In this document: positions 3,917 through 31,796 of the stretch, piece by piece | How positions within the stretch are numbered: the first letter of the stretch is position 1 | Layout: each line of letters starts with the position of its first letter | Assembly: GCA_964548815.1 (NCBI GenBank) | Contig: CAZJSD010000001.1 | Location: forward strand, 1 to 63,635 | Source: an uncultured Muribaculaceae bacterium | GTDB lineage: Bacteria; Bacillota_I; Bacilli_A; RF39; UBA660 | Length of the DNA stretch: 63,635 nucleotides | Reading direction: 5' to 3' | Notes under the pieces: generated by a model | Seen by the model: the letters and a program-made list of their open reading frames with translations, nothing else | Databases searched by the model: none | Told to the model about the DNA's origin: nothing | Translations under genes and position numbers: made by a program

Positions 3917-3933
3917 TTTAGGGGGAATATAAT

Positions 3934-4482
3934 ATGGATATGAAGTTACTCGCATTATCTGAACACGAAGATTTGCTAAGTGCTTTAGATTACGAAATAA
4001 ATTGTCCATTAGAAGATTTAACTATTAAAACAGATGATGGTTATCCAAAAGCAGATATTATTTATCAAAATAGATTTGTTGGGGATATAGGTCTAGAAGA
4101 AAGAAATTTATTTTATTTATATAGAGATAATAGATTTGTAGGTAATAAGGATTTATCAACAATTAATTATAGTAAAAGAAAAAGTAAAAATATTAGAACT
4201 TTAGTTCATACAAGATTATTTCATGGTGATTTAAAGATTAATTGTTTTAACATGTTACACAATGTTAATAGAGTAGATGATGTTGATAGAGATTTTATAT
4301 GTTTATCTGATTTATATAATATAATGATATCTAAGTATTTAGATAAAGACTATATAGAAATAGTTAGTTTATTAGAAAATGTACCTAATGATGAAATATT
4401 AGATAAATTAAGAGAAAAACAAAAAAATAAATCACTTACTTATAAACTTGAAGGAGTGAATTTAGATGAGTATAAAGACTGA
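3934..4482 (+). CDS. hypothetical protein (182 aa) inside the infB-rbfA operon
   Basis: Long ORF with GGGGGA RBS. Its 3' end overlaps the rbfA start. No motif recognised. Confidence 0.6.
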   Translation: MDMKLLALSEHEDLLSALDYEINCPLEDLTIKTDDGYPKADIIYQNRFVGDIGLEERNLFYLYRDNRFVGNKDLSTINYSKRKSKNIRTLVHTRLFHGDLKINCFNMLHNVNRVDDVDRDFICLSDLYNIMISKYLDKDYIEIVSLLENVPNDEILDKLREKQKNKSLTYKLEGVNLDEYKD

Positions 4483-4810
4483 AAGATTAGGAAATGTTTT
4501 ACATAAAGAGATAAGTCAAATATTGATGAGTGAAATAAAGGATGAAGATTTAAAATTTGTTACTATAACAAAGGTAGATCTATCAAGTGATTTATCATAT
4601 GCAAAGGTATATTTTACTTGTTTTAATCAAGATAATAAGGATAAGGTAATAAAAGATATTAATAAAGCTAGTAGATTTATTAGATCAGAATTATTAAGAA
4701 GAAAAATAGAAATAAGAAATATGCCTGAATTAAACTTTGTATATGATGATTCTATTGAATATGGAAATAAAATAGAGTCAATAATTGAAAAAATACATGA
4801 AGAGAAATAG
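4466..4810 (+). CDS. rbfA: ribosome-binding factor A
   Basis: RLGNVLHKEISQIL... typical RbfA N-terminus, ~114 aa, located after infB. Confidence 0.9.
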   Translation: MSIKTERLGNVLHKEISQILMSEIKDEDLKFVTITKVDLSSDLSYAKVYFTCFNQDNKDKVIKDINKASRFIRSELLRRKIEIRNMPELNFVYDDSIEYGNKIESIIEKIHEEK

Positions 4811-4825
4811 TTATTTCTCTTTTTT
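4801..4825 (+). terminator. rho-independent terminator after rbfA
   Basis: AGAGAAATA/TATTTCTCT stem followed by T5. Confidence 0.75.
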
Positions 4826-4884
4826 CTTGCCAAAATCAATGATTATAATATATAATGTAATTAATAATAGAAGAGGGTGTTAAT

Positions 4885-5859
4885 ATGGATTTGCTTAAAA
4901 ATTTAGGTATATCCTATAGAGGCGATTATATTACTCAAGGAAGTATTAATGATAAGAGTAAAAAATCAGCACAATTAAATATTAATAATACTGAATTTAT
5001 GGTAAGAGATGATGGAAAAGATAATGACTTTTCTAATGTATCAAATATTTATGATGGTAATGTGATTTTTCATTTGCCTACAATTAATGTAAGTCAGTCA
5101 AATTTAAAAGAAGTAAAAGATACTATATTAGAACTAATGAAGAATAATATTAGTTTATTAACTATTGATGCCTCAACTCTATTATATGAAACATTTGACT
5201 GGTCTACATCAGAAGAACAACAAAACTATTTAAAGAATATGGCAAAGGGTATTGCGGCACTCGCATCAAATAATATTCCTATTGCTATTGAAAATACTGG
5301 ATTAGATAAAAACAATCCATTATTTGGAAAAACAATCACTAATATCTCAGATTTGTTAGTATATTCAAGAAATGCCCTGGTAGAACAATATGATTTTACT
5401 AGAGAAAAAGCTAATTCAATAATAGGTATTTCTTTAAATATAGGAAATATCATGAAAACTAGTGAAATAGTTGATTTAGGTGGTTGGTTTAAAGTATTTT
5501 ATAATGATATAAGATGTGTAAAAGTAAAAAATATAGATAATACTATTCCTTTATTTAATCAGCTACTAGATATATTAATTAACAATAATATTGATATACC
5601 TATATTATTGGAAACTAAAGATGAAATAGAAGCAATTGTTAATTCTTATAAAAAATTTGAATATTTAGTAAAAAATAAAATAGAAGGAAAACCAATGAAT
5701 CTTGATGGTTATCAAAATATAATTAATTCAAGATATAATGAATATAACTATAATTTTAATAGTGCACAAAGCGGTTATACTAACGCTGTAATTATATGTA
5801 TGATACTATGTACAGCCATCGCAGCAGTACTAATGGTTATGATTAAAATGAAGCACTGA
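4885..5859 (+). CDS. hypothetical protein with C-terminal TM anchor
   Basis: 324-aa ORF with AGAGGGTG RBS and a hydrophobic tail (AVIICMILCTAIAAVLMVMI). Weak IAIENTG-type resemblance to xylose-isomerase-like TIM barrels only. Confidence 0.6.
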   Translation: MDLLKNLGISYRGDYITQGSINDKSKKSAQLNINNTEFMVRDDGKDNDFSNVSNIYDGNVIFHLPTINVSQSNLKEVKDTILELMKNNISLLTIDASTLLYETFDWSTSEEQQNYLKNMAKGIAALASNNIPIAIENTGLDKNNPLFGKTITNISDLLVYSRNALVEQYDFTREKANSIIGISLNIGNIMKTSEIVDLGGWFKVFYNDIRCVKVKNIDNTIPLFNQLLDILINNNIDIPILLETKDEIEAIVNSYKKFEYLVKNKIEGKPMNLDGYQNIINSRYNEYNYNFNSAQSGYTNAVIICMILCTAIAAVLMVMIKMKH

Positions 5860-5932
5860 AAATTTGACTTTTTAGGCTTTTTATGGTAAAATTAACATGC
5901 CTTTTCAAAGAGGGCGAATGAGGTGAAAACAA

Positions 5933-6487
5933 GTGAAATTAGGTCAAATAGCTAATAAAAAAGTAATTTCAACGTTTGTATGTTGTATGACATTTCTATT
6001 AGTTTTATATTGTACTTTATCACAAGTTAATATAGACAACAAGAGATTACAAGCATCTATAGCAGAGGCAAAAATTGAAAAAGTAGAAGAAACTATTATA
6101 GATTCAAATACAGCTTTATTAAAAGAAGCAAATTTATCAAAAATAAATTATGTTACAGTAGGTGCATATGATAGGGTTATATTACAATATTCAGCAGAAT
6201 ATAATTATTCTAGTAACCCATTAACTCAATCAAAAGGTGCATTATACTTTGATGGACATAAGGAAACATATTATTCACAAAGAGTTCTTCCAGGTAATTC
6301 ATTAGCAATTCCAGGAAGACACGTCGCGGATGATGGTACTGTAAGAGACGCAGAAGGATATATTTGTGTTGCGACAGACTATTCTTATATGCCATATGGG
6401 TCAACTTTGATGACATCAAAAGGTCCTGCAAAGGTATATGATACTGGTTGTGCATACGGTACAGTAGATTTATACGTAGACTGGTAA
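5933..6487 (+). CDS. secreted/anchored 3D-domain-like cell-wall protein
   Basis: GTG start with GAGGTGA RBS; N-terminal hydrophobic anchor; C-terminus ...CVATDYSYMPYGSTL...VYDTGCAYGTVDLYVDW resembles 3D (MltA/Rpf-associated) domains. Confidence 0.7.
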   Translation: MKLGQIANKKVISTFVCCMTFLLVLYCTLSQVNIDNKRLQASIAEAKIEKVEETIIDSNTALLKEANLSKINYVTVGAYDRVILQYSAEYNYSSNPLTQSKGALYFDGHKETYYSQRVLPGNSLAIPGRHVADDGTVRDAEGYICVATDYSYMPYGSTLMTSKGPAKVYDTGCAYGTVDLYVDW

Positions 6488-13123: not shown

Positions 13124-14653
13124 ATGAGAAAATTTAATATAAAAAATATATTTTTCCTACTATTAATGTTAGTAGGTTTTTTTATTGGAAATAACCATGT
13201 AAAAGCTGAGGTTTTTAATGGAGCAATAACAAAGGGGGATAGAATTGGATATTATTATAAAAATGTAAGAGGAGAACATGAACTATGGGAATATTTAACA
13301 TGGACTAAAAGAACTACTGATGGTGCTGATGTATATTGTATACAACCGTTTATGATAATAAATCCAGATGGAAGTTATCAAGTTACTACTGAGGATATTG
13401 CACAAGTTGCAAATATCTCGTTCGATAGATGGGATAGGATTACAAAAGTAGCATATTATGGATATGGATATAACGCTAATGGGTATAATCATACAGATCC
13501 AAGATGGTATGCTGCAACTCAAATGTTAATATGGAGATTAGCTGATCCTAGTGTAGATAGTTATTTTACTCCATATTTAAATGGTCCAAGAGATGATAGT
13601 ATTCTTGCTGGTGAAATGGCTGAAATAAATAATTTAGTAGATAATCATTTAACTAAACCAATATTTAATAATATTCCTTCAGAATTAAATATAGAAGAGA
13701 CAATATCACTTACTGATTCTGTAAATGTACTATCAAATTATACTATTACTGATGTTAGTGGCGGAGATGTCTCTATCAATGGTAATCAATTAAATATTAC
13801 TCCACATCAAATAGGAGATATGAATTTTAGTATAAGTAAACTTGGTAATATTTATGGTGAATCTATTGCTCTTTACTATGCTACTGATAGTCAAAATGCT
13901 ATTAGAAGAGGCAATATAGATCCTTTGAAAATACCTATGAATTTTACTGTTGTTGGAGGTAAAATAAAAATAAATAAAGTGGGTGAAGTAGCGACTCTAT
14001 CTGAAAATGGATATGAATATACTACAGAGCAATTAAGTGGAATAAAATTTGGATTATTTGATGAAAATGATAATTTGATTGAAGATAAAGTTACAAATGA
14101 AGAAGGAATTATAGAATTTAATAATATTAAACTAGGAAATTATTATATTCAAGAATTAGAAACATTAGATGGATATGTTCTAGACGATACAAAACATTAT
14201 ATAGAATTAAAAAATGATGATATTAATAATCCATTAGTTGAATATGAAACTTTAATAACAAATAAAATTCCAACAGGAAAATTAGTATTTACAAAAACAG
14301 ATTATAGTGAATCAGAGACACTACCAAATACTTTGATAGAAATTTATAATGAAAGTAATGAATTAGTATTTACTGGTAGAACAGATAGCGATGGAAAAAT
14401 AGAAATAGAAAGATTACCTATTGGCAAGTATTATATCTTAGAAAAAGATGCACCAGAAGGATATACTTTAAATGAAGAGAAAATGTGGTTTGAAATTTTA
14501 GAAAATAATGACGTTGTTAAAGCTACAATGAAAGATGAAAAAATAATTAATGTTCCTAATACTTATAAAAATAATAAGTATTTAATTGTTTCCTTCTTTA
14601 TAATATCTTTAGGATTAATAGTGATTGTATATGGTAAAAAGAAAAGAAAATAA
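13124..14653 (+). CDS. surface adhesin: thioester domain plus CnaB/SpaA-type repeats, C-terminal sorting signal
   Basis: Signal peptide MRKFNIKNIFFLLLMLVGFF...VKA. Thioester motifs VYCIQP and ATQMLIW. Repeats of type GKLVFTKTD..., LPIGKYYILEKDAPEGY. C-terminal VPNTY plus hydrophobic stretch plus KKKRK. Start chosen at the second ATG (GAGGAG RBS). Confidence 0.8.
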   Translation: MRKFNIKNIFFLLLMLVGFFIGNNHVKAEVFNGAITKGDRIGYYYKNVRGEHELWEYLTWTKRTTDGADVYCIQPFMIINPDGSYQVTTEDIAQVANISFDRWDRITKVAYYGYGYNANGYNHTDPRWYAATQMLIWRLADPSVDSYFTPYLNGPRDDSILAGEMAEINNLVDNHLTKPIFNNIPSELNIEETISLTDSVNVLSNYTITDVSGGDVSINGNQLNITPHQIGDMNFSISKLGNIYGESIALYYATDSQNAIRRGNIDPLKIPMNFTVVGGKIKINKVGEVATLSENGYEYTTEQLSGIKFGLFDENDNLIEDKVTNEEGIIEFNNIKLGNYYIQELETLDGYVLDDTKHYIELKNDDINNPLVEYETLITNKIPTGKLVFTKTDYSESETLPNTLIEIYNESNELVFTGRTDSDGKIEIERLPIGKYYILEKDAPEGYTLNEEKMWFEILENNDVVKATMKDEKIINVPNTYKNNKYLIVSFFIISLGLIVIVYGKKKRK

Positions 14654-15224
14654 ATTGTTTTTAATTATAGGATTATTATTAATTATAATGGGAATAGGAA
14701 CATTAATTTATAATTATAACGACAATATAAAAATTAAAATACAAAATAAAAAAGCAATCAAAGAATACTACAAAAAAGAAAAACAAGATGAAGAAACTAA
14801 TAATGATTTAAAACCTGATCAAAAAATAACTTATAGATATATTGCTATTTTAAAAATACCTAAAATTAATTTAGAAAATGGAATAGTGGAGAAAAATAGC
14901 ATTTATAATAATGTTCAATATGGAATAGAAATGTTAGAAGAATCAGATTATCCTGATAAAATAAATGGGGATTTTATTCTAGCTTCTCATAATGGTAATT
15001 CTCCAGTTTCACACTTTAGAAATTTATATAGGTTAGAACTTGGAGATGAGGCAATAGTTGATTATAAGAATAGTTCCTATATTTATAAATTAACTAACAT
15101 ATATGATATTCCTAAAACAGGAAAAGCAACAATAAAATCAAATAATAAAAAAAATAACTTAGTATTAATTACATGTAAGGGTAATACAGATTTTCAAACT
15201 GTATATATTTTTGAAAATAATTAA
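14631..15224 (+). CDS. sortase-family transpeptidase dedicated to the adjacent adhesin
   Basis: N-terminal TM segment, ASHNG His region and LVLITC catalytic Cys motif; overlaps the adhesin 3' end. Confidence 0.8.
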   Translation: MVKRKENKLFLIIGLLLIIMGIGTLIYNYNDNIKIKIQNKKAIKEYYKKEKQDEETNNDLKPDQKITYRYIAILKIPKINLENGIVEKNSIYNNVQYGIEMLEESDYPDKINGDFILASHNGNSPVSHFRNLYRLELGDEAIVDYKNSSYIYKLTNIYDIPKTGKATIKSNNKKNNLVLITCKGNTDFQTVYIFENN

Positions 15225-15240
15225 AAGAAAGGAGAAGCAT

Positions 15241-15570
15241 ATGCCTATAGAAAATAAAAAACCACCTATAAGAATTAGAGTTATTAAAGAAGATTTTAAT
15301 AAAGTGATTGAACTTTTAAGTATCACATCAACTTTAGATGATAAAGAAATAAAAGAAAAATCTATAAAATGTAAGGATAAGTTACTAACTTATTCTTTTA
15401 TTTTAGATGATGATTTGTTAGAACTTAGGTTTTTCCCATATGAAGCTGAATTACTTATGCAAATTTTAATGTGTCAAATTAATGGAATAGAACCTCAAGA
15501 AGACTATTTTAAAATATTACAAGAAAAAAGATTTAAATATAAAGAAAATATAGAAAAGGAGCGTGAATAA
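15241..15570 (+). CDS. hypothetical protein (109 aa)
   Basis: ATG with AAAGGAGA RBS; the ORF-track start at 15211 is an extension. Confidence 0.55.
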   Translation: MPIENKKPPIRIRVIKEDFNKVIELLSITSTLDDKEIKEKSIKCKDKLLTYSFILDDDLLELRFFPYEAELLMQILMCQINGIEPQEDYFKILQEKRFKYKENIEKERE

Positions 15571-15573
15571 TTT

Positions 15574-15918
15574 ATGTTAAATCAAATTGTATTAGTTGGG
15601 AGATTAGTTAGGGATCCAGAAATTAAAGAAAGTGAAGGAGGTCATAAATATACAAATATTACCTTAGCAGTTCCTAAAGGTTATAAAAATGAACAAGGAG
15701 AATATGAAACAAATTTTATAGATTTAAAATTATGGAAGGGTGTTGCGGAGAATACAGCAGAATATTGTAAAAAAGGCGATCTTCTTGGTGTAAAGGGTAG
15801 AGTTGACACAAGATTTTATGAAAACGATGGTGAAAAAAAATATGTTACAGAATTAGTTGCGGATAAAGTGACTTTTTTAAGTAATAAATCAAAAGAAGAA
15901 CCAGAAGCAGCAAGATAA
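15574..15918 (+). CDS. ssb: single-stranded DNA-binding protein, short SsbB-like form
   Basis: MLNQIVLVGRLVRDPE OB-fold N-terminus. Ends ...EEPEAAR without the acidic D-D-D-[IL]-P-F tip. Confidence 0.9.
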   Translation: MLNQIVLVGRLVRDPEIKESEGGHKYTNITLAVPKGYKNEQGEYETNFIDLKLWKGVAENTAEYCKKGDLLGVKGRVDTRFYENDGEKKYVTELVADKVTFLSNKSKEEPEAAR

Positions 15919-15931
15919 CACTTGCTGCTTT
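15907..15931 (+). terminator. candidate terminator after ssb
   Basis: GCAGCAAG-ATAACA-CTTGCTGC stem; only a short T-run follows. Confidence 0.45.
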
Positions 15932-15937
15932 AATATG

Positions 15938-15955
15938 TCTAGTGAAATTCTAGTA
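15938..15955 (+). promoter_or_regulatory. TCTAGTGAA-N4-YAGT motif, copy 1
   Basis: TCTAGTGAAATTCTAGTA, 38 nt upstream of the small ORF at 15993; related copies at 32617 and 41922. Confidence 0.35.
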
Positions 15956-15992
15956 ATTATATTTATAAACTATTTTTGAAAGGAGTTTTAAT

Positions 15993-16166
15993 ATGGAATT
16001 ATATAAAGTGATATTAAAAGGCGAAAAAGAAATTCAACACTTTTTTATTAATGCAGCCTCTAAAGAAGAAGCAATTAGAACTGTAGTGGAATTCTTTTTA
16101 CAAGATATAGATGTTGAAGACACTATTTTTATAGAAATTAGTGATACTGAAAAGTTATCAGTATAA
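15993..16166 (+). CDS. small hypothetical protein (57 aa), below the ORF-track cut-off
   Basis: AAAGGAG RBS 6 nt upstream of the ATG. On the ICE coding strand, which makes the antisense ORF 16034-16240 unlikely. Confidence 0.45.
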   Translation: MELYKVILKGEKEIQHFFINAASKEEAIRTVVEFFLQDIDVEDTIFIEISDTEKLSV

Positions 16167-16258
16167 AGGACTAGCAAGCATTGAATTTGTACTCCCACTA
16201 TGAGACAAATTCTGAATATGGGGTAAACCCCAATCCCCAAAAATTAAGGAGGTATAAT

Positions 16259-16375
16259 ATGGATAGATTATTTTATTTTTTATTAGGTTTTCTTTTAGGA
16301 ATGATGGTTTTATTTATATATTGTTCACTAGTAATTAGTAAAGAGGAAGAAATATTATTAGAAAAAGACAAATAA
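16259..16375 (+). CDS. small membrane peptide (38 aa)
   Basis: AAGGAGG RBS then ATG; one TM helix (LFYFLLGFLLGMMVLFIYCSLVI). Confidence 0.35.
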   Translation: MDRLFYFLLGFLLGMMVLFIYCSLVISKEEEILLEKDK

Positions 16376-16440
16376 AAAAACAATTCTGGTTAAATGATTT
16401 TGAAAATAAAAAACTAAAAGATAATACTATAAAAACAGGA

Positions 16441-16683
16441 ATGTGTGAATCTGACTATTTAAGAACTTTGATAAATGGTTATCTTCCAAAAGAAAAACCA
16501 CCAAAAGAATTTTATGATATCATAAATGAATTAAGAAGAATTGGAAATAATATAAATCAAATTGCAAAAATAGCAAACAAAACTAATTACATTAATGAAG
16601 ATATGTTGTATAATGTTATAGGTATGTTAAAAAAAATAATTAACAATTTAATATCTAGGTATTTAAAACCAGATAGAAAGTAG
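16441..16683 (+). CDS. mobC: MobC-like relaxosome accessory protein; true start probably upstream and non-ATG
   Basis: ...SDYLRTLI...LRRIGNNINQIAK... pattern. The open frame extends to 16342 and encodes RKRQIKKQFWLNDFENKKL, which looks like the missing N-terminus. Confidence 0.65.
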   Translation: MCESDYLRTLINGYLPKEKPPKEFYDIINELRRIGNNINQIAKIANKTNYINEDMLYNVIGMLKKIINNLISRYLKPDRK

Positions 16684-16695
16684 GCAAGATACAAT

Positions 16696-16887
16696 ATGAG
16701 AGATTTAGATAAATCAATATTAAAAGAATTAGATCATCAAAGATTAAGCGGAAGCGTTATTTCATCTGTTATGAACAAATTAAATACTAATAGTAAAAAA
16801 TATCAATTTTTATCCTATATGATTAGTAAAAGAAATACGATTCTTTCTATAGCTGAATTATTTAATAAAATAAAGGAAATTAATTAA
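16696..16887 (+). CDS. hypothetical protein (63 aa)
   Basis: ORF on the ICE coding strand, followed directly by a terminator. Confidence 0.45.
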   Translation: MRDLDKSILKELDHQRLSGSVISSVMNKLNTNSKKYQFLSYMISKRNTILSIAELFNKIKEIN

Positions 16888-16913
16888 AAAATACTTTAAA
16901 AGTATTTTTTTTT
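16888..16913 (+). terminator. rho-independent terminator
   Basis: AAAATACT-TTAAA-AGTATTTT plus a T-run. Confidence 0.6.
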
Positions 16914-16959
16914 ATGATATCATAGAAAGCAATTATTAATTAGAGGGAGGTTAAGCTGA

Positions 16960-17370
16960 ATGAAGGATAAAGTTGTAGAACATTTGAAATTTATACAAGA
17001 TACAATTAACAGAATGGCTAAGCATTCTTTTTCTATTAAAGAAGCCACTATTTTGATAAATGTTGCAGTATTCGCTTTTGCCGGACAAGCAAATAATAAG
17101 GCATCAATTATATCTATAATTCCTACAATTATTATGTGGGGTTTAGATTCTTATTATTTGTTACAAGAAAAAAAATTCAGATTACTTTATGATTATGTTA
17201 GAAGTAAAAATGATACTGATTTTGATATGAATTACAATAATTTAAATATTAAACTTAATAAAGTAAATAAATATACTTTTATAAATACTTTCTTTTCTGT
17301 TACAGAATTATTTTTTTACTTAGGTTTGTTAATTACAGTATCAATAATATACTTTTATCCATTTAAATAA
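16960..17370 (+). CDS. small 3-TM membrane protein, candidate effector partner of the TIR protein
   Basis: GAGGGAGG RBS. A cytosolic amphipathic N-terminus (HLKFIQDTINRMAKHSF), a TM hairpin (about aa 29-65), a ~45-aa loop and a third TM (about aa 108-132). Confidence 0.7.
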   Translation: MKDKVVEHLKFIQDTINRMAKHSFSIKEATILINVAVFAFAGQANNKASIISIIPTIIMWGLDSYYLLQEKKFRLLYDYVRSKNDTDFDMNYNNLNIKLNKVNKYTFINTFFSVTELFFYLGLLITVSIIYFYPFK

Positions 17371-17382
17371 GGAGGTATTAAA

Positions 17383-18006
17383 ATGGGAAGAAAAATATTT
17401 GTATCTTATAAATATTCTGATGAAGCAGTTTATGATATAGAAGGAAACTTTAATCAAACAGTTCGTGATTATGTTGATGTCATAGAAAGAAAAATAGATT
17501 TTTCGGATGACATTTATGTTGGTGAACATGATGGGGAAGATATGTCTGATTTTAAAGATCCAACAATTGAAACAAAATTAAAAAATAAAATCTTTAATAG
17601 CACTGTAACAATAGTTTTAATATCTAAAAAAATGAAAGATTTGTGGGAAGATGAAAATGACCAATGGATTCCATGGGAGATATCATATTCTTTATCTCAA
17701 TATACAAGAAATGGAAGAACCAGTTCAACAAATGCATTATTATGCGTAGTTTTACCGGATGAATTCAATTCTTATGATTACTATTATCTTGATGATAAGG
17801 ATGAAAAGTATTCATATGTTAATAGCGTTTCATTCGAAATAATAAAAGAAAATAGAAATAATTTAAAACATGGGCGATATGGAGATAACAACTATGCAGT
17901 TACTGTAAAATGGAAATATTTCATTGATAATATGGATTATTATATTAATAAAGCAGTTTCACATCAAAGTAATTATGATGATTATGAGATAAAAAGAACA
18001 GTTTAA
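17383..18006 (+). CDS. ThsB-like TIR-like (DUF1863-type) domain protein
   Basis: MGRKIFVSYKYSDE start, ...TVTIVLISKKM... strand, and WIPWEISYSL with a candidate catalytic Glu99. Layout parallels Thoeris ThsB (KRVFFSFHYQD ... WVRYEI). Confidence 0.75.
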   Translation: MGRKIFVSYKYSDEAVYDIEGNFNQTVRDYVDVIERKIDFSDDIYVGEHDGEDMSDFKDPTIETKLKNKIFNSTVTIVLISKKMKDLWEDENDQWIPWEISYSLSQYTRNGRTSSTNALLCVVLPDEFNSYDYYYLDDKDEKYSYVNSVSFEIIKENRNNLKHGRYGDNNYAVTVKWKYFIDNMDYYINKAVSHQSNYDDYEIKRTV

Positions 18007-18028
18007 AATTATAAATTGTTCTTTTTTT
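17993..18028 (+). terminator. candidate terminator after the TIR gene
   Basis: AAAGAACA / TGTTCTTT stem with a 16-nt loop and a T-run; overlaps the ORF-track start of the relaxase. Confidence 0.4.
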
Positions 18029-19335
18029 CTTTGAAAGAAGGTGAAAAAATCGCAGTAACATCAATTTGGAAAGTTAATAATAAATTAAAAAGAGTAATTG
18101 ATTATATATCTAATAGCGAAAAGACATATTCTTCAGATATGGATTTTTTTAATTCTTTAGAATTGGAAGATAATGATATAACAAAAGAAGAAAAATTATT
18201 AGTAAGTGGAATAAATTGTAGTTCAGACAATACCTATGAAGATATGATGTTAACAAAAGAAAGATTTAATAAAAAAGATGGAATATTAGCTTTTCATACA
18301 ATTCAATCATTTAATGATGAAAATCTTACTCCAGAACTTGTCCATAAAATAGGGATTAAGTTTGCTAAAGAAGTATGGGGTGATAGATTTGAAGTATTAG
18401 TTTGTACTCATAGAAATACAGAACATTATCATAATCATTTTTTAATTAACTCAGTATCTTTTATAGATGGTAAAAAATATTATGCTAATAAAAGTTCTTA
18501 TGCCTTTATTAGAGAAGTTTCTGATTCTTTATGTGAAGAATATGGACTATCTATTATTAATAAAACAGAGTCCTTTAAATATGATTTAAAAAAGACAGAT
18601 TATTTTAAAAAAGATAATTACTATAAAACTGCTAAATCTGATATAGATACTGCTATAGAAAACGCAAAAAATTATTCTGATTTTGAAAGACAATTAAAAA
18701 TGATGAATTATGAAATAATATATAGAAATAATAAATTAAGTATAAGATCTAAAGACTTTAAAAGAAATATAAGAGTAGAAAGGTATTTTGGAGAAGATTA
18801 TTCAACAAAAAATATAATTAAAAGAATAAACAATTTATATATTCAAAATTCAAATAAAAAGAATTATATAAATAAAAAAAATATAAAGAAATATAAAAAG
18901 AATAGCTTAATTTATCTATATTATCATTATTTATATTTATTGAAATTATATAAAAATAATCCAAAGTATTTTAAATATAGTAAAGAATTAAAAAAAGATA
19001 TAGAAAAAATGAATAAAATATCGGAAGAATTTGATTATCTTGGTAGAAATAAACTTAAAACTAATGAGGATATAAATAAGTTTATGAATATAAAAGAACA
19101 ACAGTTAAATTTTTATAAGGATAAAAGAGAAAAGTTATGGAAGAAATATAAAAGAGTAGATGACATTACTAAAGAAACAATAATAGAAGAATTAAATCAA
19201 AATGAAAAAGTAATAGATAATCTAAAATTAGATGTTAAAACATGTGAAGAAATAATTAATAGAAGAAATAATATATTTAAAAATATAAACAAAATAGAAA
19301 AGGAGGTATTAATAGATTATGAACACATCAGGTGA
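18016..19335 (+). CDS. relaxase/mobilisation nuclease (MobA/VirD2 superfamily); start codon uncertain
   Basis: His-triad region VCTHRNTEHYHNHFLINSV; Lys-rich coiled C-terminal half. N-terminus ...IAVTSIWKV resembles relaxase starts, but no canonical start lies next to the AAGGTG RBS. Confidence 0.85.
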   Translation: MFFFSLKEGEKIAVTSIWKVNNKLKRVIDYISNSEKTYSSDMDFFNSLELEDNDITKEEKLLVSGINCSSDNTYEDMMLTKERFNKKDGILAFHTIQSFNDENLTPELVHKIGIKFAKEVWGDRFEVLVCTHRNTEHYHNHFLINSVSFIDGKKYYANKSSYAFIREVSDSLCEEYGLSIINKTESFKYDLKKTDYFKKDNYYKTAKSDIDTAIENAKNYSDFERQLKMMNYEIIYRNNKLSIRSKDFKRNIRVERYFGEDYSTKNIIKRINNLYIQNSNKKNYINKKNIKKYKKNSLIYLYYHYLYLLKLYKNNPKYFKYSKELKKDIEKMNKISEEFDYLGRNKLKTNEDINKFMNIKEQQLNFYKDKREKLWKKYKRVDDITKETIIEELNQNEKVIDNLKLDVKTCEEIINRRNNIFKNINKIEKEVLIDYEHIR

Positions 19336-19924
19336 CGCTGCTGAAAGCATTGTGAAATTTTCTATAGAAGGTGTTGAAGTGGCTGCAAAAATTACAGGAA
19401 CAACTGCAAAAGAAATAGGAGTTTTACTTTATGCTTTATTAAAAGATAAAAAACAAACTAAAGGTAAAACTACATTAACTAATATGTTAAAGTCAGGTAA
19501 AGAATTAAAAATTTTTACTATTAAACAAGAAGATTTTAAGAAATTTGCATCTGAGGCAAAAAGATATGGAATTTTATATTGCGCTTTAGTAAATGCCAAG
19601 AATAAAGATAAAGATGGAATAATAGATATTATGGTTAAAACTGAAGATGCTGCTAGAATAAATCGAATTGTAGATAGATTTATAGTAAATTATGATGAAG
19701 CTACTATTAAAAGTGAAATAAATAAAACAAGAGAAAAATCATCAAACCCGTCTTCGGCCAAAACAGAAAAAAACCCTCTGTCAAAGCCTTCATCACAAAT
19801 GCAAAGAACTTCAGGTCAGGGTACTAAACCTAGAAAGTCAGTAAGGAAAAAACTTGAAGAAATTAAAAAAGGTTTAGAAAAACAACCTAGAAAACAAAAA
19901 GTTAAAAGTGAGAAAGTAAAATAA
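19319..19924 (+). CDS. PcfB/DUF3801-like conjugation accessory protein
   Basis: N-terminal pattern ...AESIVKFSIEGVEVAAKITGTTAKEIGVLLYALLK... and a basic C-terminal tail, as seen next to relaxases in Firmicute ICEs. Confidence 0.7.
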   Translation: MNTSGDAAESIVKFSIEGVEVAAKITGTTAKEIGVLLYALLKDKKQTKGKTTLTNMLKSGKELKIFTIKQEDFKKFASEAKRYGILYCALVNAKNKDKDGIIDIMVKTEDAARINRIVDRFIVNYDEATIKSEINKTREKSSNPSSAKTEKNPLSKPSSQMQRTSGQGTKPRKSVRKKLEEIKKGLEKQPRKQKVKSEKVK

Positions 19925-20121
19925 TGAAGAAAGAATTAAAAGTAATAGATTTTGATAAATATGAAATAAGAATAATTATTACAGCTCTTAACGATTTAAG
20001 AAACAGATTATTAAATGAAGATAAAGATACTTTTAATGTAGATGAATTATTATTAAAAGTATTGGATGCTCCAGAGAAAAAGAGATATTTTTCTAAAAGT
20101 CATTTTTTAGGTGAAAGATGA
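19924..20121 (+). CDS. small hypothetical protein (65 aa)
   Basis: Tightly coupled (TAATG) to the preceding gene and overlaps the T4CP start. Confidence 0.5.
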   Translation: MKKELKVIDFDKYEIRIIITALNDLRNRLLNEDKDTFNVDELLLKVLDAPEKKRYFSKSHFLGER

Positions 20122-21926
20122 AAAAAGAAGATATTATTTTATTTTTAATTGGTTTAATGATAATGATATGGTTAGGATTATTATTAGCGCCAGTAATTGA
20201 TAAAGGATTATTTGACATTATTGATTATATATCTAAGTTAAATAATCCTTTTAATATATCTTTTTATAGTAATTCATTTAAATCAGTTATAATTATTGTT
20301 TTAATTTATTCATTAATTATGTTTGTTTATTTTGAATCAAGAAGAAATTATAGAAAAGGAGAAGAATATGGTTCTGCAAAATGGGGAAATAAAAGGAATA
20401 TAAAAAAGGAATATACACAAGAACCAATAGAACAAAATAAGATATTAACTAAAAATGTATCTATAGGTTTAAATACAAAAAAACATAGAAGAAATCTAAA
20501 CACTATAGTAATTGGTGGATCTGGTGCAGGTAAAACAAGATTTTATGCAAAGCCTAATATAATGCAGGCAAATACATCTTTTGTAGTTTTAGATCCAAAA
20601 GGTGAAATATTAAGAGATACTGGGAACTTATTAAAAGAAAAAGGATATGAAATAAAAGTATTAGATTTAATAAATATGGAAAAAAGTCATTGTTATAATC
20701 CATTTGTTTATATTAACTCAGATAATGATATACAAAAATTAGTAACAAACATATTTAAATCAACTACACCAAAAGGGAGTGTTGCTCAAGATCCGTTTTG
20801 GGATACTATGGCGGCTGCTTTATTAAATGCTTTAATGTTTTATTTATGGTATGAGGCACCAGAAGAAGAACAAAACTTTTCTATGGTAATGGAAATGATA
20901 AGAGCTGGGGATATTAATGAAGAAGAGGATGATCATGCTACACCACTTGATTTATTATTTAATCAATTAGAGTATGAAAATCCAAATCATGTAGCACTTA
21001 AATATTATAGAAGTTATAGAAGTGGATCTGCTAAAACATTAAAATCTATATTAGTAACTTTAGTGAGTAGATTAGAAAAATTTAATTTACCAACAGTAGC
21101 ATCCCTAACACAATATGATGAAATGGACTTATCTAGTATAGGTGAAGTTAAAACAGCAATATTTGCAATTATACCTGATAATGATCCATCATTTAATTTT
21201 TTAGTAAGTATATTATATACTCAGTTATTTCAACAACTATTTTATCTTGCAGATAAAAAGTATAGAGGATCATTACCAGTTCAAGTTCATTTTTTGATGG
21301 ATGAGTTTGCCAATGTATCTCTTCCTGACGATTTTGAAAAAATATTATCAGTAATGAGATCTAGAGGTATTTTTGTTTCTATAATATTACAAAATCTAGC
21401 ACAATTAAAAGCTTTATTTGAAAAACAATGGGAATCCATTGTAGGTAATTGTGATGAATTCTTATATTTAGGTGGTATGGAGCAATCCACACATAAGTAT
21501 ATATCTGAATTTTTAGGAAAAGAAACAATAGATACTAATACATATGGATATACAAAAGGAAGAAATGGTAGTTATTCAACAAACTATCAAATAAATGGAA
21601 GAGAATTATTAACTCCAGATGAAATTAGATTATTAAATAATGACTATTCTATTTTATTTATAAGAGGTGAAAGACCTATAAAAGATAGAAAATATAATAT
21701 ACTAAAACATTCAAATGTTAAGCTATCTGTAGATGGTGGTGGAAAAGAATATGAGCATGGAAGTGTAGAGTATTCAACAGCATCTATTAATTTGGATTTT
21801 AATATTAACACTAAAGATTTAAAACTAGGTAGGGTTAATGCTAAAAATTATGTATTATTATCATCCGAAGAATTGGATGATTTTTTTAATAAAAAGAAAG
21901 AAGGTATTAAAAATGAAAAGAAATAA
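20118..21926 (+). CDS. type IV coupling protein (VirD4/TraG-like)
   Basis: Two N-terminal TM segments, Walker A IGGSGAGKTRF, Walker B-like FLMDEFAN. Confidence 0.92.
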   Translation: MKKEDIILFLIGLMIMIWLGLLLAPVIDKGLFDIIDYISKLNNPFNISFYSNSFKSVIIIVLIYSLIMFVYFESRRNYRKGEEYGSAKWGNKRNIKKEYTQEPIEQNKILTKNVSIGLNTKKHRRNLNTIVIGGSGAGKTRFYAKPNIMQANTSFVVLDPKGEILRDTGNLLKEKGYEIKVLDLINMEKSHCYNPFVYINSDNDIQKLVTNIFKSTTPKGSVAQDPFWDTMAAALLNALMFYLWYEAPEEEQNFSMVMEMIRAGDINEEEDDHATPLDLLFNQLEYENPNHVALKYYRSYRSGSAKTLKSILVTLVSRLEKFNLPTVASLTQYDEMDLSSIGEVKTAIFAIIPDNDPSFNFLVSILYTQLFQQLFYLADKKYRGSLPVQVHFLMDEFANVSLPDDFEKILSVMRSRGIFVSIILQNLAQLKALFEKQWESIVGNCDEFLYLGGMEQSTHKYISEFLGKETIDTNTYGYTKGRNGSYSTNYQINGRELLTPDEIRLLNNDYSILFIRGERPIKDRKYNILKHSNVKLSVDGGGKEYEHGSVEYSTASINLDFNINTKDLKLGRVNAKNYVLLSSEELDDFFNKKKEGIKNEKK

Positions 21927-29173: not shown

Positions 29174-30301
29174 ATGGCAATAATAGAGATGCATTCTAGT
29201 TGGTTAGCAATTAATTCGGTTCTAGGTTGTCCAAATGGATGTAAATACTGTTTATTGCAAGCAACTGGCAATAATAATGCAAAACCAAAAGAATTAGCTA
29301 CACCTCATGATTCAATAAATGCATTATTAAGTTATAAATACTACGACAAAAGTATTCCAGTTTGTTTATTACCTAATACAGATGTATTTGTTACAAAATC
29401 AAATATCAACTATTTATTGAATCTGTTAGATGAGATTGAAACTAGAAATATAAAAAATGATTTAATAATAATTACAAAGTGTGAAATCCCCGACTTAATA
29501 ATTAGTAAAGTTCTAGAATTAAAAACTAAAGGACATAATGTTATTTTTTATATTAGTTATTCCGGTTTACCAAAAGAAATAGAACCAAATATTTCAAAAA
29601 ATATTTTAATTAACAATTTTAGAAAACTAAAACAAAACAATATTGACGTTATCCATTATTATAGACCATTTTTACCTCAAAACTCATCTAAAAAAGAAAT
29701 AGAGAGTGTAATAGATGAGATAAATAAATATACTGATATCTCAGTTATTACAGGATTCGCTTTGATTCAAAATTTTATTGATAAAATTGATTTTTGGCCA
29801 GATATTATTAATAATAAAGAAAAATGTCTTAAAGCTAATTGTGTGTGGCCAAGAACAGCTTGGGAGTTCTTTAATAAAGATTATAAGAAAAGACAATATG
29901 TTTTTCAAACAAATACATGTGGTTTATATAGCAAATTAAAAAGACCATCACATTATTATGGATCTTATGAATGTTTAAATTATAATCATTGTAGTAAAGA
30001 ACAAAAATATAGATGTAAAAAAAGACATGAGATGATAGATAAAATTACACAAGAATTAAATTGTTATAAATTATTAAAAAAATTAGGTTATGATATAAGT
30101 AATATTGATTTAAAATATGATATGTATAATAGTATCGTTTTACAAAATATAGATTTGAAAATAAGTGATTTATCATATTTATCGTATATGCTAGAAACTA
30201 AAGTATATATTAAAAATAATAATATATTAGAAGATACATATAATTCAACATTAAATGGAGCTAAACCATTAGTTTTGGAAACAGGAGCTAAAAATGAATG
30301 A
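29174..30301 (+). CDS. radical SAM enzyme (COG1533/SPL-like N-terminal motif), function unknown
   Basis: CX3CX2C in ...VLGCPNGCKYCLLQ...; GAGGTGA RBS before MAIIEM; a second Cys-rich patch near the C-terminus. Confidence 0.8.
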   Translation: MAIIEMHSSWLAINSVLGCPNGCKYCLLQATGNNNAKPKELATPHDSINALLSYKYYDKSIPVCLLPNTDVFVTKSNINYLLNLLDEIETRNIKNDLIIITKCEIPDLIISKVLELKTKGHNVIFYISYSGLPKEIEPNISKNILINNFRKLKQNNIDVIHYYRPFLPQNSSKKEIESVIDEINKYTDISVITGFALIQNFIDKIDFWPDIINNKEKCLKANCVWPRTAWEFFNKDYKKRQYVFQTNTCGLYSKLKRPSHYYGSYECLNYNHCSKEQKYRCKKRHEMIDKITQELNCYKLLKKLGYDISNIDLKYDMYNSIVLQNIDLKISDLSYLSYMLETKVYIKNNNILEDTYNSTLNGAKPLVLETGAKNE

Positions 30302-31796
30302 AATAATAAAATTTTTGGATATTCACTATGAGTCTGCTTTAAAATTAGTAAGTGATTTTGATATAACAAAAAATAAAGAATGGAATTCTCAAATTTATTT
30401 AAATGAATTATATGTTCAGTTAGGACACGTCTATAATGTTTTATATTCAAATGATAATGTTAATGAATTAAAAAGAAATATAAATAATCTTGGGGATGAA
30501 TTATCTGATGTATTACTTCAATTAATAAATTTAGCTTATACTTTAAAAATAAATATGTATGAAATAAATAATATAGACTCATTTCAATATGATGATATTA
30601 ATGGTTTTCCTATTCTTTTAGGCCAATTAACAGAAGTAATTATGGAAATGAATGATTGCAGATTTAAAAAAAATAGATTTGGATTTAATACAAGTTTTGA
30701 TTTCATCAAAGATAGATTGTTTAAACTGTTTATGCTTACTTATAATATAGCAAAAAAATATAATCTTGATATGATAAAAGAGTTTAAAGATATGCTAGAT
30801 GATGCTAATGGTTTTTTAGATAGGTTTGAGAATAAAACAGATAATAAAAAAGAATATTTAGATATATATGATAAAAACGAAAATCTAATTGGATACTCTG
30901 ATAAAGAAATAGTCCATAAAAATGGATATTGGCACAAAGTTTTTGGATGTTTAATCTTTAACAGTAAAAGAGATGTAGTATTCTTACAGTTAAAAAATCC
31001 ATATTATAATAAAGTTAATAAAAAACCTTTATATGAAATTACAGTAGGTGGGCACTTAATTTCTGGAGAATCTGTAAGTGATGGTATAAGGGAAATAAAA
31101 GAAGAAACAGGTCTTAGTATAAAATTTAAAGATCTTGTTTTCTTTGAAAAAAGAAATATTTCAAAGAAAGTTAATAATAATTATATTATAAAAGAATTCC
31201 AATATTTTTATGGATTAAATAAAAATATTAAAGTTTCAGAATTAACTACTTACGATAATGAAGAAATTATTTCGTTTGCTGAAGTAAATATTCAAGATTT
31301 AAAAGATTTAATAAATGATAACAAAAACTCAATAAAAGGAATAAATAATTATTTAGAAAAAGTGCTAATAACTAAATCTGATTTAGATACAGCATTTATA
31401 GAAAATGGTTTATATTTATCTTTGTTAAATAATATTAATAATAAAAAGAAAAATAAAGAAATAAATAATAGAATAAAAAAACTATATAAAAAAGATAAAA
31501 ATAATAAAAAAAGTAATGACTATTACTATGATAATGGAATAGTAATAAATCATAAAGATTATTCAAAAGGAGATTTGAAGTATTCAGTAATAATACTAAA
31601 AACAGATGTTGATAAAAATGAATATTTAGTTTATTTATTATTAATATATAAAAATAAATCTATATCACATTTGTTAGAAAGAAAGTTTTTATCCAAAAGA
31701 GGAATATATAAATATTTTAATGAATTATCAAATTATATTGATATCAATAACAATTTAGATATTATAAATAAATGTATTGAAAAAAGAAATACATAA
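30294..31796 (+). CDS. MazG-like / Nudix hydrolase fusion protein with unknown C-terminal domain
   Basis: MazG-type helix LGDELSDVLLQLINLAY (around 30489-30540). Nudix box GGHLISGESVSDGIREIKEETGL (around 31047-31115). The ATG overlaps the radical-SAM stop (ATGAATGA). Confidence 0.8.
   Translation: MNEIIKFLDIHYESALKLVSDFDITKNKEWNSQIYLNELYVQLGHVYNVLYSNDNVNELKRNINNLGDELSDVLLQLINLAYTLKINMYEINNIDSFQYDDINGFPILLGQLTEVIMEMNDCRFKKNRFGFNTSFDFIKDRLFKLFMLTYNIAKKYNLDMIKEFKDMLDDANGFLDRFENKTDNKKEYLDIYDKNENLIGYSDKEIVHKNGYWHKVFGCLIFNSKRDVVFLQLKNPYYNKVNKKPLYEITVGGHLISGESVSDGIREIKEETGLSIKFKDLVFFEKRNISKKVNNNYIIKEFQYFYGLNKNIKVSELTTYDNEEIISFAEVNIQDLKDLINDNKNSIKGINNYLEKVLITKSDLDTAFIENGLYLSLLNNINNKKKNKEINNRIKKLYKKDKNNKKSNDYYYDNGIVINHKDYSKGDLKYSVIILKTDVDKNEYLVYLLLIYKNKSISHLLERKFLSKRGIYKYFNELSNYIDINNNLDIINKCIEKRNT

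Follow-up and report, generated by a model that had tools for sequence, protein, structure and literature searches.

The closest described counterpart of the locus analysed here is type V Thoeris, whose effector, ThsF, has been validated against phages (Yirmiya et al., bioRxiv 10.64898/2025.12.03.692087, Dec 2025). ThsF is a protein of ~135 aa, described with three membrane-spanning helices and annotated as Pfam DUF2270 (PF10028), which is modelled by AF3 as a ring-like homo-oligomer, a heptamer with basic pockets between the protomers (Yirmiya et al., bioRxiv 10.64898/2025.12.03.692087). The same study reports that type V and type IX ThsB proteins make 3'cADPR, that the addition of this molecule is toxic to cells with one type V system, and that a 3'cADPR sponge blocks the defence (Yirmiya et al., bioRxiv 10.64898/2025.12.03.692087). 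The association of a small membrane protein with a TIR protein is also found in PDC-M50, which belongs to the PDC systems, a set of untested candidates (Payne et al., bioRxiv 10.1101/2024.01.29.577857; PADLOC-DB v2). With regard to the TIR protein, the nearest reference is the type I Thoeris of Cytobacillus (Bacillus) dafuensis FJAT-25496, composed of ThsA, TIR1 and TIR2, in which TIR1 produces a ThsA-activating cADPR isomer on infection (Ofir et al.). We propose that two adjacent genes in the window, the stretch of 63,635 nucleotides analysed here, make up a type V Thoeris system against phages, with thsF ahead of thsB, and that an integrative conjugative element (ICE) carries them as cargo, an assignment that we regard as highly probable. 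The pair is a new example of a known system and not a new system: PADLOC had the architecture as candidate PDC-M50 in 2023/24, and its validation as type V Thoeris followed in December 2025.

The two open reading frames announced in the earlier note were recovered together with the peptides quoted for them. The first is a thsF-like gene (16960..17370, + strand) encoding a small helical membrane protein of 136 aa, assigned to the PADLOC PDC-M50A family, and the second is a thsB gene (17383..18006, + strand) encoding a ThsB-type TIR protein of 207 aa with Glu99, recognised by Pfam PF08937, PADLOC ThsB1 and PDB 9vyl. They are indeed close-set, but the distance from the first stop to the second ATG is 12 nt and not the 13 nt given previously. 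Each gene has its own ribosome-binding site, as had been stated: a Shine-Dalgarno-like GAGGGAGG (16944..16951, +) lies 8 nt 5' of the ATG of the 136-aa gene, and a Shine-Dalgarno-like AAGGAGG (17370..17376, +) lies 6 nt 5' of the ATG of the TIR gene. Terminators had also been said to bracket the pair, and RNA folding reveals two terminator-like structures. An A/U-rich hairpin followed by a U-run (16886..16910, +; -7.1 kcal/mol, z -2.56 against shuffles) closes the unit formed by mobC and a 63-aa ORF 5' of the pair, and a strong hairpin of 15 bp, again followed by a U-run (17991..18026, +; -17.6 kcal/mol, z -5.46, with 0 of 200 shuffles equally stable), overlaps the end of the TIR gene directly 5' of the relaxase ribosome-binding site. 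This claim thus stands for the stability of the hairpins, which exceeds that of shuffled sequences, but not for the consensus terminator scan, which needs three G-C pairs and called neither of them because their stems are A/U-rich. A promoter-like site (TTTAAA, 17 nt, TATCAT, with an upstream TG as extended -10; 16895..16923, +) was returned by the promoter scan and could be a weak candidate for the driver of the pair; such sites are in no excess in this AT-rich stretch, where 22 were found against 19.8 expected from shuffles. The consensus scan for promoters and terminators was altogether uninformative on the AT-rich DNA considered here.

From its profile and structure matches, the 207-aa protein is a bona fide ThsB-type TIR. 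It scores 26.5 bits against Pfam PF08937 (ThsB_TIR; cut-off 21.2), matches PADLOC ThsB1 PDLC00428 with E=8.5e-63 and aligns over residues 1-206 with PDB 9vyl, 'Putative cyclic ADP-D-ribose synthase TIR1', with E=6.7e-62; its BLASTP identity to C. dafuensis TIR1 is 50%. Residue E99, in WIPWEISY, occupies an invariant column of the alignment, opposite the Glu of 'WVRYEI' in B. cereus ThsB, whose catalytic Glu was mutated as E85Q (Ofir et al.). These observations corroborate the earlier reading of a ThsB-like TIR with E99 as its catalytic Glu, and the protein is predicted to act as phage sensor and as a cyclic-ADPR-isomer synthase with Glu99 at its catalytic site. The closest TIR relatives are two proteins with 57% (P0126) and 52% identity (P0191), a Vibrio cholerae protein (47%) and one Saprospiraceae protein, all of which have a gene for a PDC-M50A protein of 133-142 aa directly upstream, in contexts that are unrelated. 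The term 'orphan', which the earlier note had attached to this TIR, is consequently withdrawn: the neighbouring gene is that of the cognate effector.

The 136-aa protein matches PADLOC PDC-M50A (PDLC04686) over its full length with E=1.4e-34, and 197 close relatives were found. The family comprises ~5,300 clusters at 50% identity and is phylogenetically broad, extending to archaea and CPR bacteria. The AF2 model (pLDDT 84.7) contains long helices at residues 2-41, 48-82 and 114-132; in a Kyte-Doolittle profile, hydropathy is strong at 112-130 only, and a calculation by hand gives moderate values at ~30-44 and 48-66, which would accord in part with the three TM helices of the earlier note. Conserved basic or polar residues of the family are R18, K27, D63, E70 and R74, and at positions that are near-invariant in the family the window protein carries the changes N22H, W29A and F59M. 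No significant match was obtained in Pfam or NCBIfam, a Foldseek search of the PDB with the AF2 model gave no meaningful match (best E 0.73), and a Pfam search detected no Macro domain in the protein or its neighbours. An effector of the SLATT kind had been suggested from size and topology, and this suggestion was not borne out, SLATT families being absent from the matches of the protein itself and from the 25 families most matched by 136 of its relatives (E<=10). As for PF10028 (DUF2270), it is not matched by the 136-aa protein at E<=1 and is matched below threshold by 26 of the 136 relatives (best E 0.0017; cut-off 25 bits); weak matches of the relatives to other Pfam families, such as DUF3278 (45/136) and 8xMP (17/136), are as common or commoner. 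That the DUF2270 threshold is reached neither by this protein nor by most of its relatives is an observation that speaks against a type V assignment. In a literature search, the term 'PDC-M50' was not found and '8xMP' returned coincidental strings only. Because the family escapes Pfam, annotation based on Pfam will miss type V Thoeris.

The gene neighbourhood of the 136-aa family, which the earlier note had suggested looking at, is dominated by TIR genes. Of 80 genome loci centred on the small PDC-M50A gene, 68 have a TIR gene no farther than 1.3 kb from it (66 with a TIR-like ORF and 2 with a Pfam TIR_2 protein), usually at a spacing of 0-35 nt, and in 61 of the 80 a TIR on the same strand is found within 300 nt, upstream, downstream or on both sides. 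The density of TIR ORFs is 0.507/kb near the small gene as against 0.023/kb farther off in the same loci. The two genes occur in both orders and in unrelated genomic contexts, and the effector family is paired with at least five different TIR clades. From this comparison across genomes, the 136-aa protein is not a chance neighbour of the TIR. The TM module also occurs as part of larger proteins, joined to a SLOG sensor domain where a TIR_2 gene shares the operon and, in another case, to an 8xMP membrane domain adjoining a ThsB.

The correspondence between this family and ThsF is indirect but specific, and rests on the gene neighbours of TIR proteins that are either listed in the type V study or resemble its validated members. 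Yirmiya et al. (Table S1) give TIRs from the cluster of the window TIR the tag 'DUF2270 - Type V'. Entry 2509795226 of that table bears the same tag; a TIR protein with 100% identity to it over 200 aa (P0170) has directly upstream a gene that matches an HMM of the 136-aa protein's family with E=5.6e-26. In two further loci, the TIRs are 71% identical to the validated ThsB of Bacillus sp. 1NLA3E and a member of the family follows directly, and relatives of the validated B. thuringiensis ThsB adjoin family members on Priestia, Terribacillus and Klebsiella plasmids. It was first suspected that the effector family is unrelated to DUF2270, a view that was ruled out by the Table S1 link; the DUF2270 label in Yirmiya et al. 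must come from a more sensitive or cluster-level annotation. Two other candidates were discarded in the course of this comparison. The '3TM' class of Table S1 was considered as the effector family, but it is paired with a different TIR cluster, which is absent beside the family in the 80 loci; the B. cereus plasmid NZ_CP053657.2, considered as a source of a validated-like ThsF, carries a SIR2 gene and several TIRs, a type I Thoeris that lacks ThsF.

These elements can be assembled into the following mechanism. The 207-aa ThsB would remain inactive until a phage cue is sensed through its C-terminal half, upon which the TIR active site (Glu99) would turn NAD+ into a cyclic isomer of ADP-ribose, for which we infer 3'cADPR as the likeliest identity. 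The 136-aa ThsF, predicted here to be a signal-gated membrane effector, would sit in the membrane as a homo-oligomer and bind the signal on its cytosolic side, and the likely binding elements R18, K27, D63, E70 and R74 would be provided by the N-terminal amphipathic helix and the helix after TM2. We infer both the signal-binding site and the oligomeric pore; the conserved R18, K27 and R74 are compatible with the basic inter-protomer pockets of the published model. The ThsF oligomer would then open, or the membrane would be disrupted, and the infected cell would stop growing or die before the phage cycle ends (abortive infection), so that the host population, and the ICE with it, would be protected. 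The earlier proposal of a two-gene abortive-infection system, with a ThsB-like TIR and a small membrane effector as ICE cargo, is in this way supported by comparative evidence. Of the two routes that it left side by side, a TIR-made signal or NAD depletion, the former is favoured and the latter appears less likely.

NAD+ depletion would be central if the wiring were reversed, with the TIR as the killer, as in the TIR effectors of CBASS, Pycsar and SPARTA, and the small membrane protein as sensor or regulator, for example of a membrane perturbation at phage DNA injection. Many bacterial TIR domains are NADases and not signal synthases, and the 136-aa protein has no recognisable nucleotide-binding domain. 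However, the window TIR is close to B. dafuensis TIR1, the maker of a diffusible ThsA-activating signal, and in the published work 3'cADPR is toxic to cells with a type V system and a 3'cADPR sponge blocks the defence. The fusion of the TM module to the ligand-sensing SLOG domain in TIR operons puts this module downstream of the signal, and the pairing of one TM family with at least five TIR clades is what would be expected of a common effector with interchangeable sensors. We consider reversed wiring to be very unlikely.

It can also be envisaged that the Thoeris wiring is kept and that the molecule is not 3'cADPR, being instead 2'cADPR, canonical cADPR or an undescribed ADPR derivative. The validated type V system of Bacillus sp. 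1NLA3E was not toxic on addition of 3'cADPR (Yirmiya et al., bioRxiv 10.64898/2025.12.03.692087), so that the signal may differ; several new Thoeris TIRs make other isomers, and the window ThsF departs from its family at the three near-invariant positions given above. Against this, B. dafuensis TIR1, the nearest TIR to have been characterised, activates the ThsA of B. cereus; according to Yirmiya et al., this ThsA answers 3'cADPR and neither 2'cADPR nor the other known Thoeris signals, and 3'cADPR is the product of the type V and IX ThsB proteins. A different signal thus seems unlikely, although it deserves consideration, and 3'cADPR is retained in the type V reading.

The pair occupies, as cargo, a variable slot of an ICE of ~36 kb, with mobC on one side and the relaxase gene on the other, in a Gram-positive host of very low GC (24.7%). 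Upstream are a mobC/nikA-like relaxosome accessory gene (16441..16683, +; Pfam MobC 2.1e-8, NikA-like 1.8e-8) and a conserved 63-aa ORF (16696..16887, +) without significant Pfam match; downstream is a MOBP-type relaxase gene (18016..19335, +; Pfam Relaxase PF03432, 7.4e-37), the true start of which is probably at 18031 or later, gene callers giving a relaxase of 434 aa in identical contigs. In related relaxase loci, mobC and the relaxase gene are directly contiguous or have some other gene between them; insertion of the pair into this arrangement, as the earlier note had it, is borne out by these loci, with the addition that the 63-aa ORF also lies in between. The pair occurs in this position in two ICE lineages that have diverged, and both of its genes are under purifying selection relative to the sister lineage (dN/dS 0.16 for the 136-aa gene and 0.23 for the TIR gene), where the 63-aa ORF is likewise found at the same place with 70% identity and a dN/dS of 0.17. 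A metagenome scan with the relaxase returned two loci, and megablast of the region against plasmids gave no match. It had further been claimed that ThsA is absent from the window. This holds beside the pair, where no SIR2-SLOG or TM-Macro gene is adjacent; for the window as a whole it holds among the matches listed, namely 25 of the 67 PADLOC families matched by 59 window ORFs, and in Pfam scans of 10 large window ORFs.

Because the pair sits inside a relaxosome gene cluster, a function centred on the ICE itself, such as addiction (post-segregational killing), entry exclusion or conjugation control in place of phage defence, may be suspected. The co-oriented location between mobC and the relaxase gene, conserved in both lineages, would suit such a role, but related relaxase loci do without the pair, which is flanked by its own hairpins, and the cassette is found in many non-conjugative contexts: alongside RM systems and the defence genes Abi_2, NERD and reverse transcriptase, close to a DUF645 gene of Vibrio, and within a MoxR-VWA pair. 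An ICE-centred function is accordingly judged extremely unlikely. A variant of the type V reading can be proposed in which the cassette is co-regulated with the ICE transfer module, by transcripts that pass the hairpins, coming from the mobC promoter or running on into the relaxase gene, and/or the divergent ThsF (N22H, W29A, F59M) answers a signal other than 3'cADPR. We deem it quite improbable. If true, transfer wiring would couple the onset of Thoeris immunity to conjugation or to entry into a new host, and either this wiring or a ThsF with another signal would represent a novel form of type V Thoeris.

Under the preferred reading, a type V Thoeris system carried as cargo, the pair opens no new question, and its interest lies elsewhere. 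From sequence alone, the earlier note arrived at a minimal membrane effector driven by a TIR signal, an architecture that was experimentally validated only in late 2025; the agreement lends support both to the scan and to the published classification. The PADLOC candidate PDC-M50A is now linked with ThsF, and the effector family emerges as large and phylogenetically broad. The pair documents what is very probably a type V system inherited as cargo by a Gram-positive ICE, in its mobC-relaxase slot, and this bears on the spread of Thoeris immunity in gut and anaerobe communities.

In comparison with known systems, the pair resembles type V Thoeris in joining a ThsB-type TIR with a small effector in one two-gene operon, and its TIR cluster is in Table S1. 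It differs from the validated type V systems, which have other TIR clades, in that its TIR is of the B. dafuensis TIR1-like clade, and from the type V description in that its effector falls below the Pfam DUF2270 threshold; the effector gene comes first, both orders occurring in the family, and the location is inside an ICE relaxosome cluster. PDC-M50 shares the small membrane protein with a TIR, and the 136-aa protein is a full-length PDC-M50A, but the window TIR matches PDC-M50B, the shorter TIR (~160 aa) of gut TIR-TM-TIR loci, only weakly (1.5e-3), PDLC00428 (ThsB1) fitting far better. With the type I system of C. dafuensis, the pair shares the TIR, for which TIR1 is the nearest relative that has been characterised and has a solved structure; that system relies on a cytosolic SIR2-SLOG NADase as effector, whereas the pair has a small membrane protein, and the neighbours of thsB are mobC, the 63-aa ORF, the 136-aa gene and the relaxase gene, with no SIR2-SLOG ThsA. 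Type II is set apart by its TM-Macro effector, of which there is none beside thsB. The proposed logic, in which a nucleotide-derived signal made upon infection activates a membrane-disrupting effector, is nevertheless common to Thoeris II (TM-Macro ThsA/ThsC), Thoeris VII (SLATT ThsH) and the TM effectors of CBASS and Pycsar (Cap15, PycTM). Unlike these effectors, the 136-aa protein has neither a Macro nor a SLATT domain and no sequence similarity to them, and the ligand-binding part must lie within ThsF's own 136 residues.

The small membrane protein gene (16960-17370, 136 aa) and the TIR gene (17383-18006, 207 aa) lie on the plus strand where the earlier note had placed them, with 12 nt between them and a good Shine-Dalgarno sequence ahead of each. 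A MobC/NikA-like gene (16441-16683) and a 63-aa ORF (16696-16887) are located 5' of the pair, and a MOBP-type relaxase gene, DUF3801 and a VirD4-like coupling protein follow in this order on its 3' side. The flanking hairpins are also real, with -7.1 kcal/mol (z -2.6) at 16886-16910 and -17.6 kcal/mol (z -5.5) at 17991-18026, so that the original observation of ORFs, hairpins and neighbours is confirmed. Neither hairpin was called by a consensus terminator scan because the stems are A/U-rich, and promoter-like matches were no more frequent than in shuffled sequence. The start of the relaxase is ambiguous: the longest ORF opens at a TTG at 18016, within the terminator-like hairpin, the 434 aa given by gene callers on identical contigs implies a start at TTG 18031, and a GAAGG at ~18037 stands ahead of an ATC (18049) after which the reading continues AVTSIWKV.

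The element carrying the pair is an ICE of roughly 36 kb. The genes infB and truB and an ABC transporter precede parA/parB (about 9984), after which come genes for a sortase, SpaA-type pilins and SSB, then the relaxosome genes and a type IV secretion set. Beyond these are encoded a protein with RHS repeats, a GH25-LysM lysin and a large serine recombinase (44937-46502), and then a UvrD/PcrA helicase. The ICE also encodes a 500-aa protein whose central part is a NUDIX domain (30294-31796), and its RHS-repeat protein (35185-41367) is 2,060 aa long and possibly a polymorphic toxin. The window is uniformly at 24.7% G+C, and the pair does not stand out in composition. On a Cohnella plasmid (relaxase 42% identical) mobC abuts the relaxase gene, and in a metagenomic relative (L115, relaxase 45% identical) the same place is filled by an unrelated soluble 139-aa ORF (3557-3976), which may itself be cargo with a defence or anti-defence role. 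The mobC-relaxase site therefore behaves as a variable cargo slot, as the earlier note had surmised in treating the pair as an acquired defence islet. Comparison with the sister ICE lineage indicates purifying selection on both genes, with dN/dS of 0.16 for the membrane protein and 0.23 for the TIR. The divergence between the two lineages is mosaic (window 14625-21926 against L001 3671-10970): the sortase gene through the 136-aa gene are strongly diverged (dS 0.57-1.37, 67-78% amino acid identity), dS falls to an intermediate 0.37 in the TIR gene, and from the relaxase gene to that of the coupling protein the sequences are almost the same (dS 0.02-0.19). A 57-aa ORF inside the diverged part (15993-16166) is 100% identical. 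This pattern suggests recombination, with a breakpoint near or inside the pair.

The 207-aa protein is, as judged from its sequence, a ThsB, in agreement with the earlier assignment to this kind of TIR. It scores 26.5 bits against Pfam ThsB_TIR (PF08937; cut-off 21.2) and matches the PADLOC ThsB1 model PDLC00428 end to end (8.5e-63), while the sole solved structure matched, 9vyl (6.7e-62, residues 1-206), is the 'Putative cyclic ADP-D-ribose synthase TIR1' of Cytobacillus dafuensis (P0130 in our protein set). In an alignment of relatives with the TIR domain of B. cereus MSX-D12 ThsB, nine columns are invariant; one of them holds E99, which pairs with the Glu of 'WVRYEI' (residue 86 or 87 in the tagged PDB chains 9b7d and 6lhy). 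The latter is E85 of B. cereus ThsB, and the E85Q substitution abolished signal production (Ofir et al.). B. dafuensis TIR1 together with ThsA conferred phage-specific defence, and lysates from infected TIR1-expressing cells activated B. cereus ThsA (Ofir et al.).

The 136-aa protein has no significant match in Pfam or NCBIfam; it aligns over its full length with the PADLOC PDC-M50A models (best 1.4e-34), the PDC systems being 145 untested 'phage defence candidates' obtained from guilt-by-embedding (Payne et al., bioRxiv 10.1101/2024.01.29.577857). A word-indexed search returned 197 close relatives; their lengths are about 135-160 aa, and Pfam domains are recorded for none of them. An exhaustive profile search raised the number to 5,307 cluster representatives (50% identity) at E<=1e-3, of which 3,736 reach E<=1e-10. 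Alignments of the family display an N-terminal motif, IQxxINRMAxNSFxLKGW, and a second one, FWGLDSYYLLQERxYRxLY, at the end of the second helix, with R18 invariant and K27, D63, E70 and R74 nearly so. The AF2 model is all-helical and confident (pLDDT 84.7, pTM 0.76), without counterpart in the PDB. With one genome taken per species, a pattern scan identified 328 loci, covering Bacillota, Bacteroidota, Pseudomonadota, Actinomycetota, Chloroflexota, Spirochaetes, CPR bacteria and a methanogen. Among archaea, a Methanimicrococcus genome (L028) carries a ThsF-like gene with a TIR-like ORF downstream of it, and further such genes are on haloarchaeal plasmids of Haladaptatus (H19) and Halorhabdus (H22).

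Both the family membership and the linkage of this family with TIR genes are direct observations of the present analysis. A 68%-identical relative keeps the order mobC / 63-aa / 136-aa / TIR / relaxase in 24 metagenome contigs, and a 38%-identical one, common in human-gut assemblies, is flanked by two ThsB genes and adjoins RM systems on mobilisable elements. Loci L007-L012 (about 4494-6047 each) carry a triple TIR(145-163 aa)-ThsF-TIR(203 aa) adjoining type II and IIG RM systems, all on Mob_Pre/TnpV mobilisable elements; its ThsF is indexed in 417 assembly-collection blocks, largely human-gut, which implies a very widespread version. The closest relatives of the TIR are found beside Abi_2 and NERD genes (P0126, 57% identity), with a reverse transcriptase and an AAA_15 ATPase as neighbours (P0191, 52%) and near a DUF645 gene in Vibrio cholerae (47%), a further one being a Saprospiraceae protein; each has directly 5' a gene for 133-142 aa, and all these small proteins are PDC-M50A (1e-41 to 1e-54). 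The 80 best genome loci were searched iteratively for TIRs, starting from diverse published TIR domains. In 66 a TIR-like ORF lies <=1.3 kb from the small gene, and a larger Pfam TIR_2 protein is present in two more. The TIR is on the same strand within 300 nt in 61 loci (28 upstream only, 23 downstream only, 10 on both sides), mostly at gaps of 0-35 nt, and TIR-like ORFs reach 0.507 per kb near the small gene, 22 times the 0.023 per kb of more distant parts of these loci. At least five TIR clades are represented among the partners. At L119 (986-5240; also L120 and L121), a ThsF-ThsB pair lies between genes for bpMoxR, a MoxR-type AAA+ ATPase, and a VWA-domain protein, on one strand and with overlapping ends, which represents either a Thoeris cassette inserted in a MoxR-VWA pair or a four-gene system.

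Some relatives of the membrane module are fused to other domains. P0317 and P0370 carry an N-terminal SLOG domain (LD_cluster2), and the former belongs to an operon that also contains a TIR_2 gene and a 152-aa ORF and adjoins a patatin gene (L117, 2689-5137). SLOG is the signal-sensing domain of ThsA, and its fusion therefore puts the membrane module on the output side; the ThsF module may here have gained a sensor domain of its own, giving one more Thoeris configuration. P0388 (L118, 169-1808) has the ThsF-like module behind an N-terminal 8xMP domain ('octameric membrane protein', PF24838), and a ThsB gene comes next. Sub-threshold Pfam matches recur among 136 relatives (DUF3278 in 45, DUF2270 in 26, 8xMP in 17), and the 8xMP matches hint that small oligomeric membrane effectors form a wider superfamily.

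Type V Thoeris is defined as ThsB with ThsF, a three-TM effector 'annotated as PF10028, DUF2270', for which AF3 predicts a heptameric channel with basic inter-protomer pockets (Yirmiya et al., bioRxiv 10.64898/2025.12.03.692087). The Pfam DUF2270 threshold was reached neither by the 136-aa protein nor by any relative tested, and the families were equated through their partner TIRs. In Table S1 of that study, cluster 2742576382 contains 'DUF2270 - Type V' TIRs whose motif is almost identical to that of the window TIR. The TIR P0170 is 100% identical over 200 aa to IMG 2509795226, listed there as 'DUF2270 - Type V', and the gene directly 5' of it matches an HMM built from relatives of the 136-aa protein (5.6e-26). 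In Exiguobacterium (L085) and Oceanobacillus (L097), a TIR 71% identical to the validated ThsB of Bacillus sp. 1NLA3E is directly followed by a member of the small-protein family, in the 1NLA3E gene order, and plasmids of Priestia, Terribacillus and Klebsiella carry family members next to homologues of the ThsB validated for B. thuringiensis. On these links, we equate the 136-aa family with both PDC-M50A and ThsF.

We propose, as the best-supported mechanism, that ThsB would sense infection and produce a cADPR isomer, probably 3'cADPR, which would gate a ThsF oligomer via its conserved cytosolic face, so that the membrane would fail and the infection abort. The earlier reading of a TIR signal coupled to a small membrane effector is supported by family membership, TIR linkage and the type V match. 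That the window pair would signal and defend is drawn from the literature on homologues: two Bacillus type V systems defended against phages and their TIRs made 3'cADPR on infection, and for that of B. thuringiensis the addition of 3'cADPR was toxic and the Tad1 sponge lowered defence (Yirmiya et al.). We infer the signal for the window TIR clade combined with ThsF, as well as the ThsF binding site. The same wiring might instead use a signal other than 3'cADPR, since a response to 3'cADPR was absent in one validated type V system (Yirmiya et al.). A reversed wiring, with the TIR as an NADase effector, and a function of the pair centred on the ICE are both disfavoured, as the ThsB assignment, the family, the linkage, the type V match and the genomic setting count against them. 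The proposed ThsB-to-ThsF signalling concerns a system already catalogued as PDC-M50 and validated as type V Thoeris, of which the window pair is a new, somewhat divergent member, carried on an ICE.
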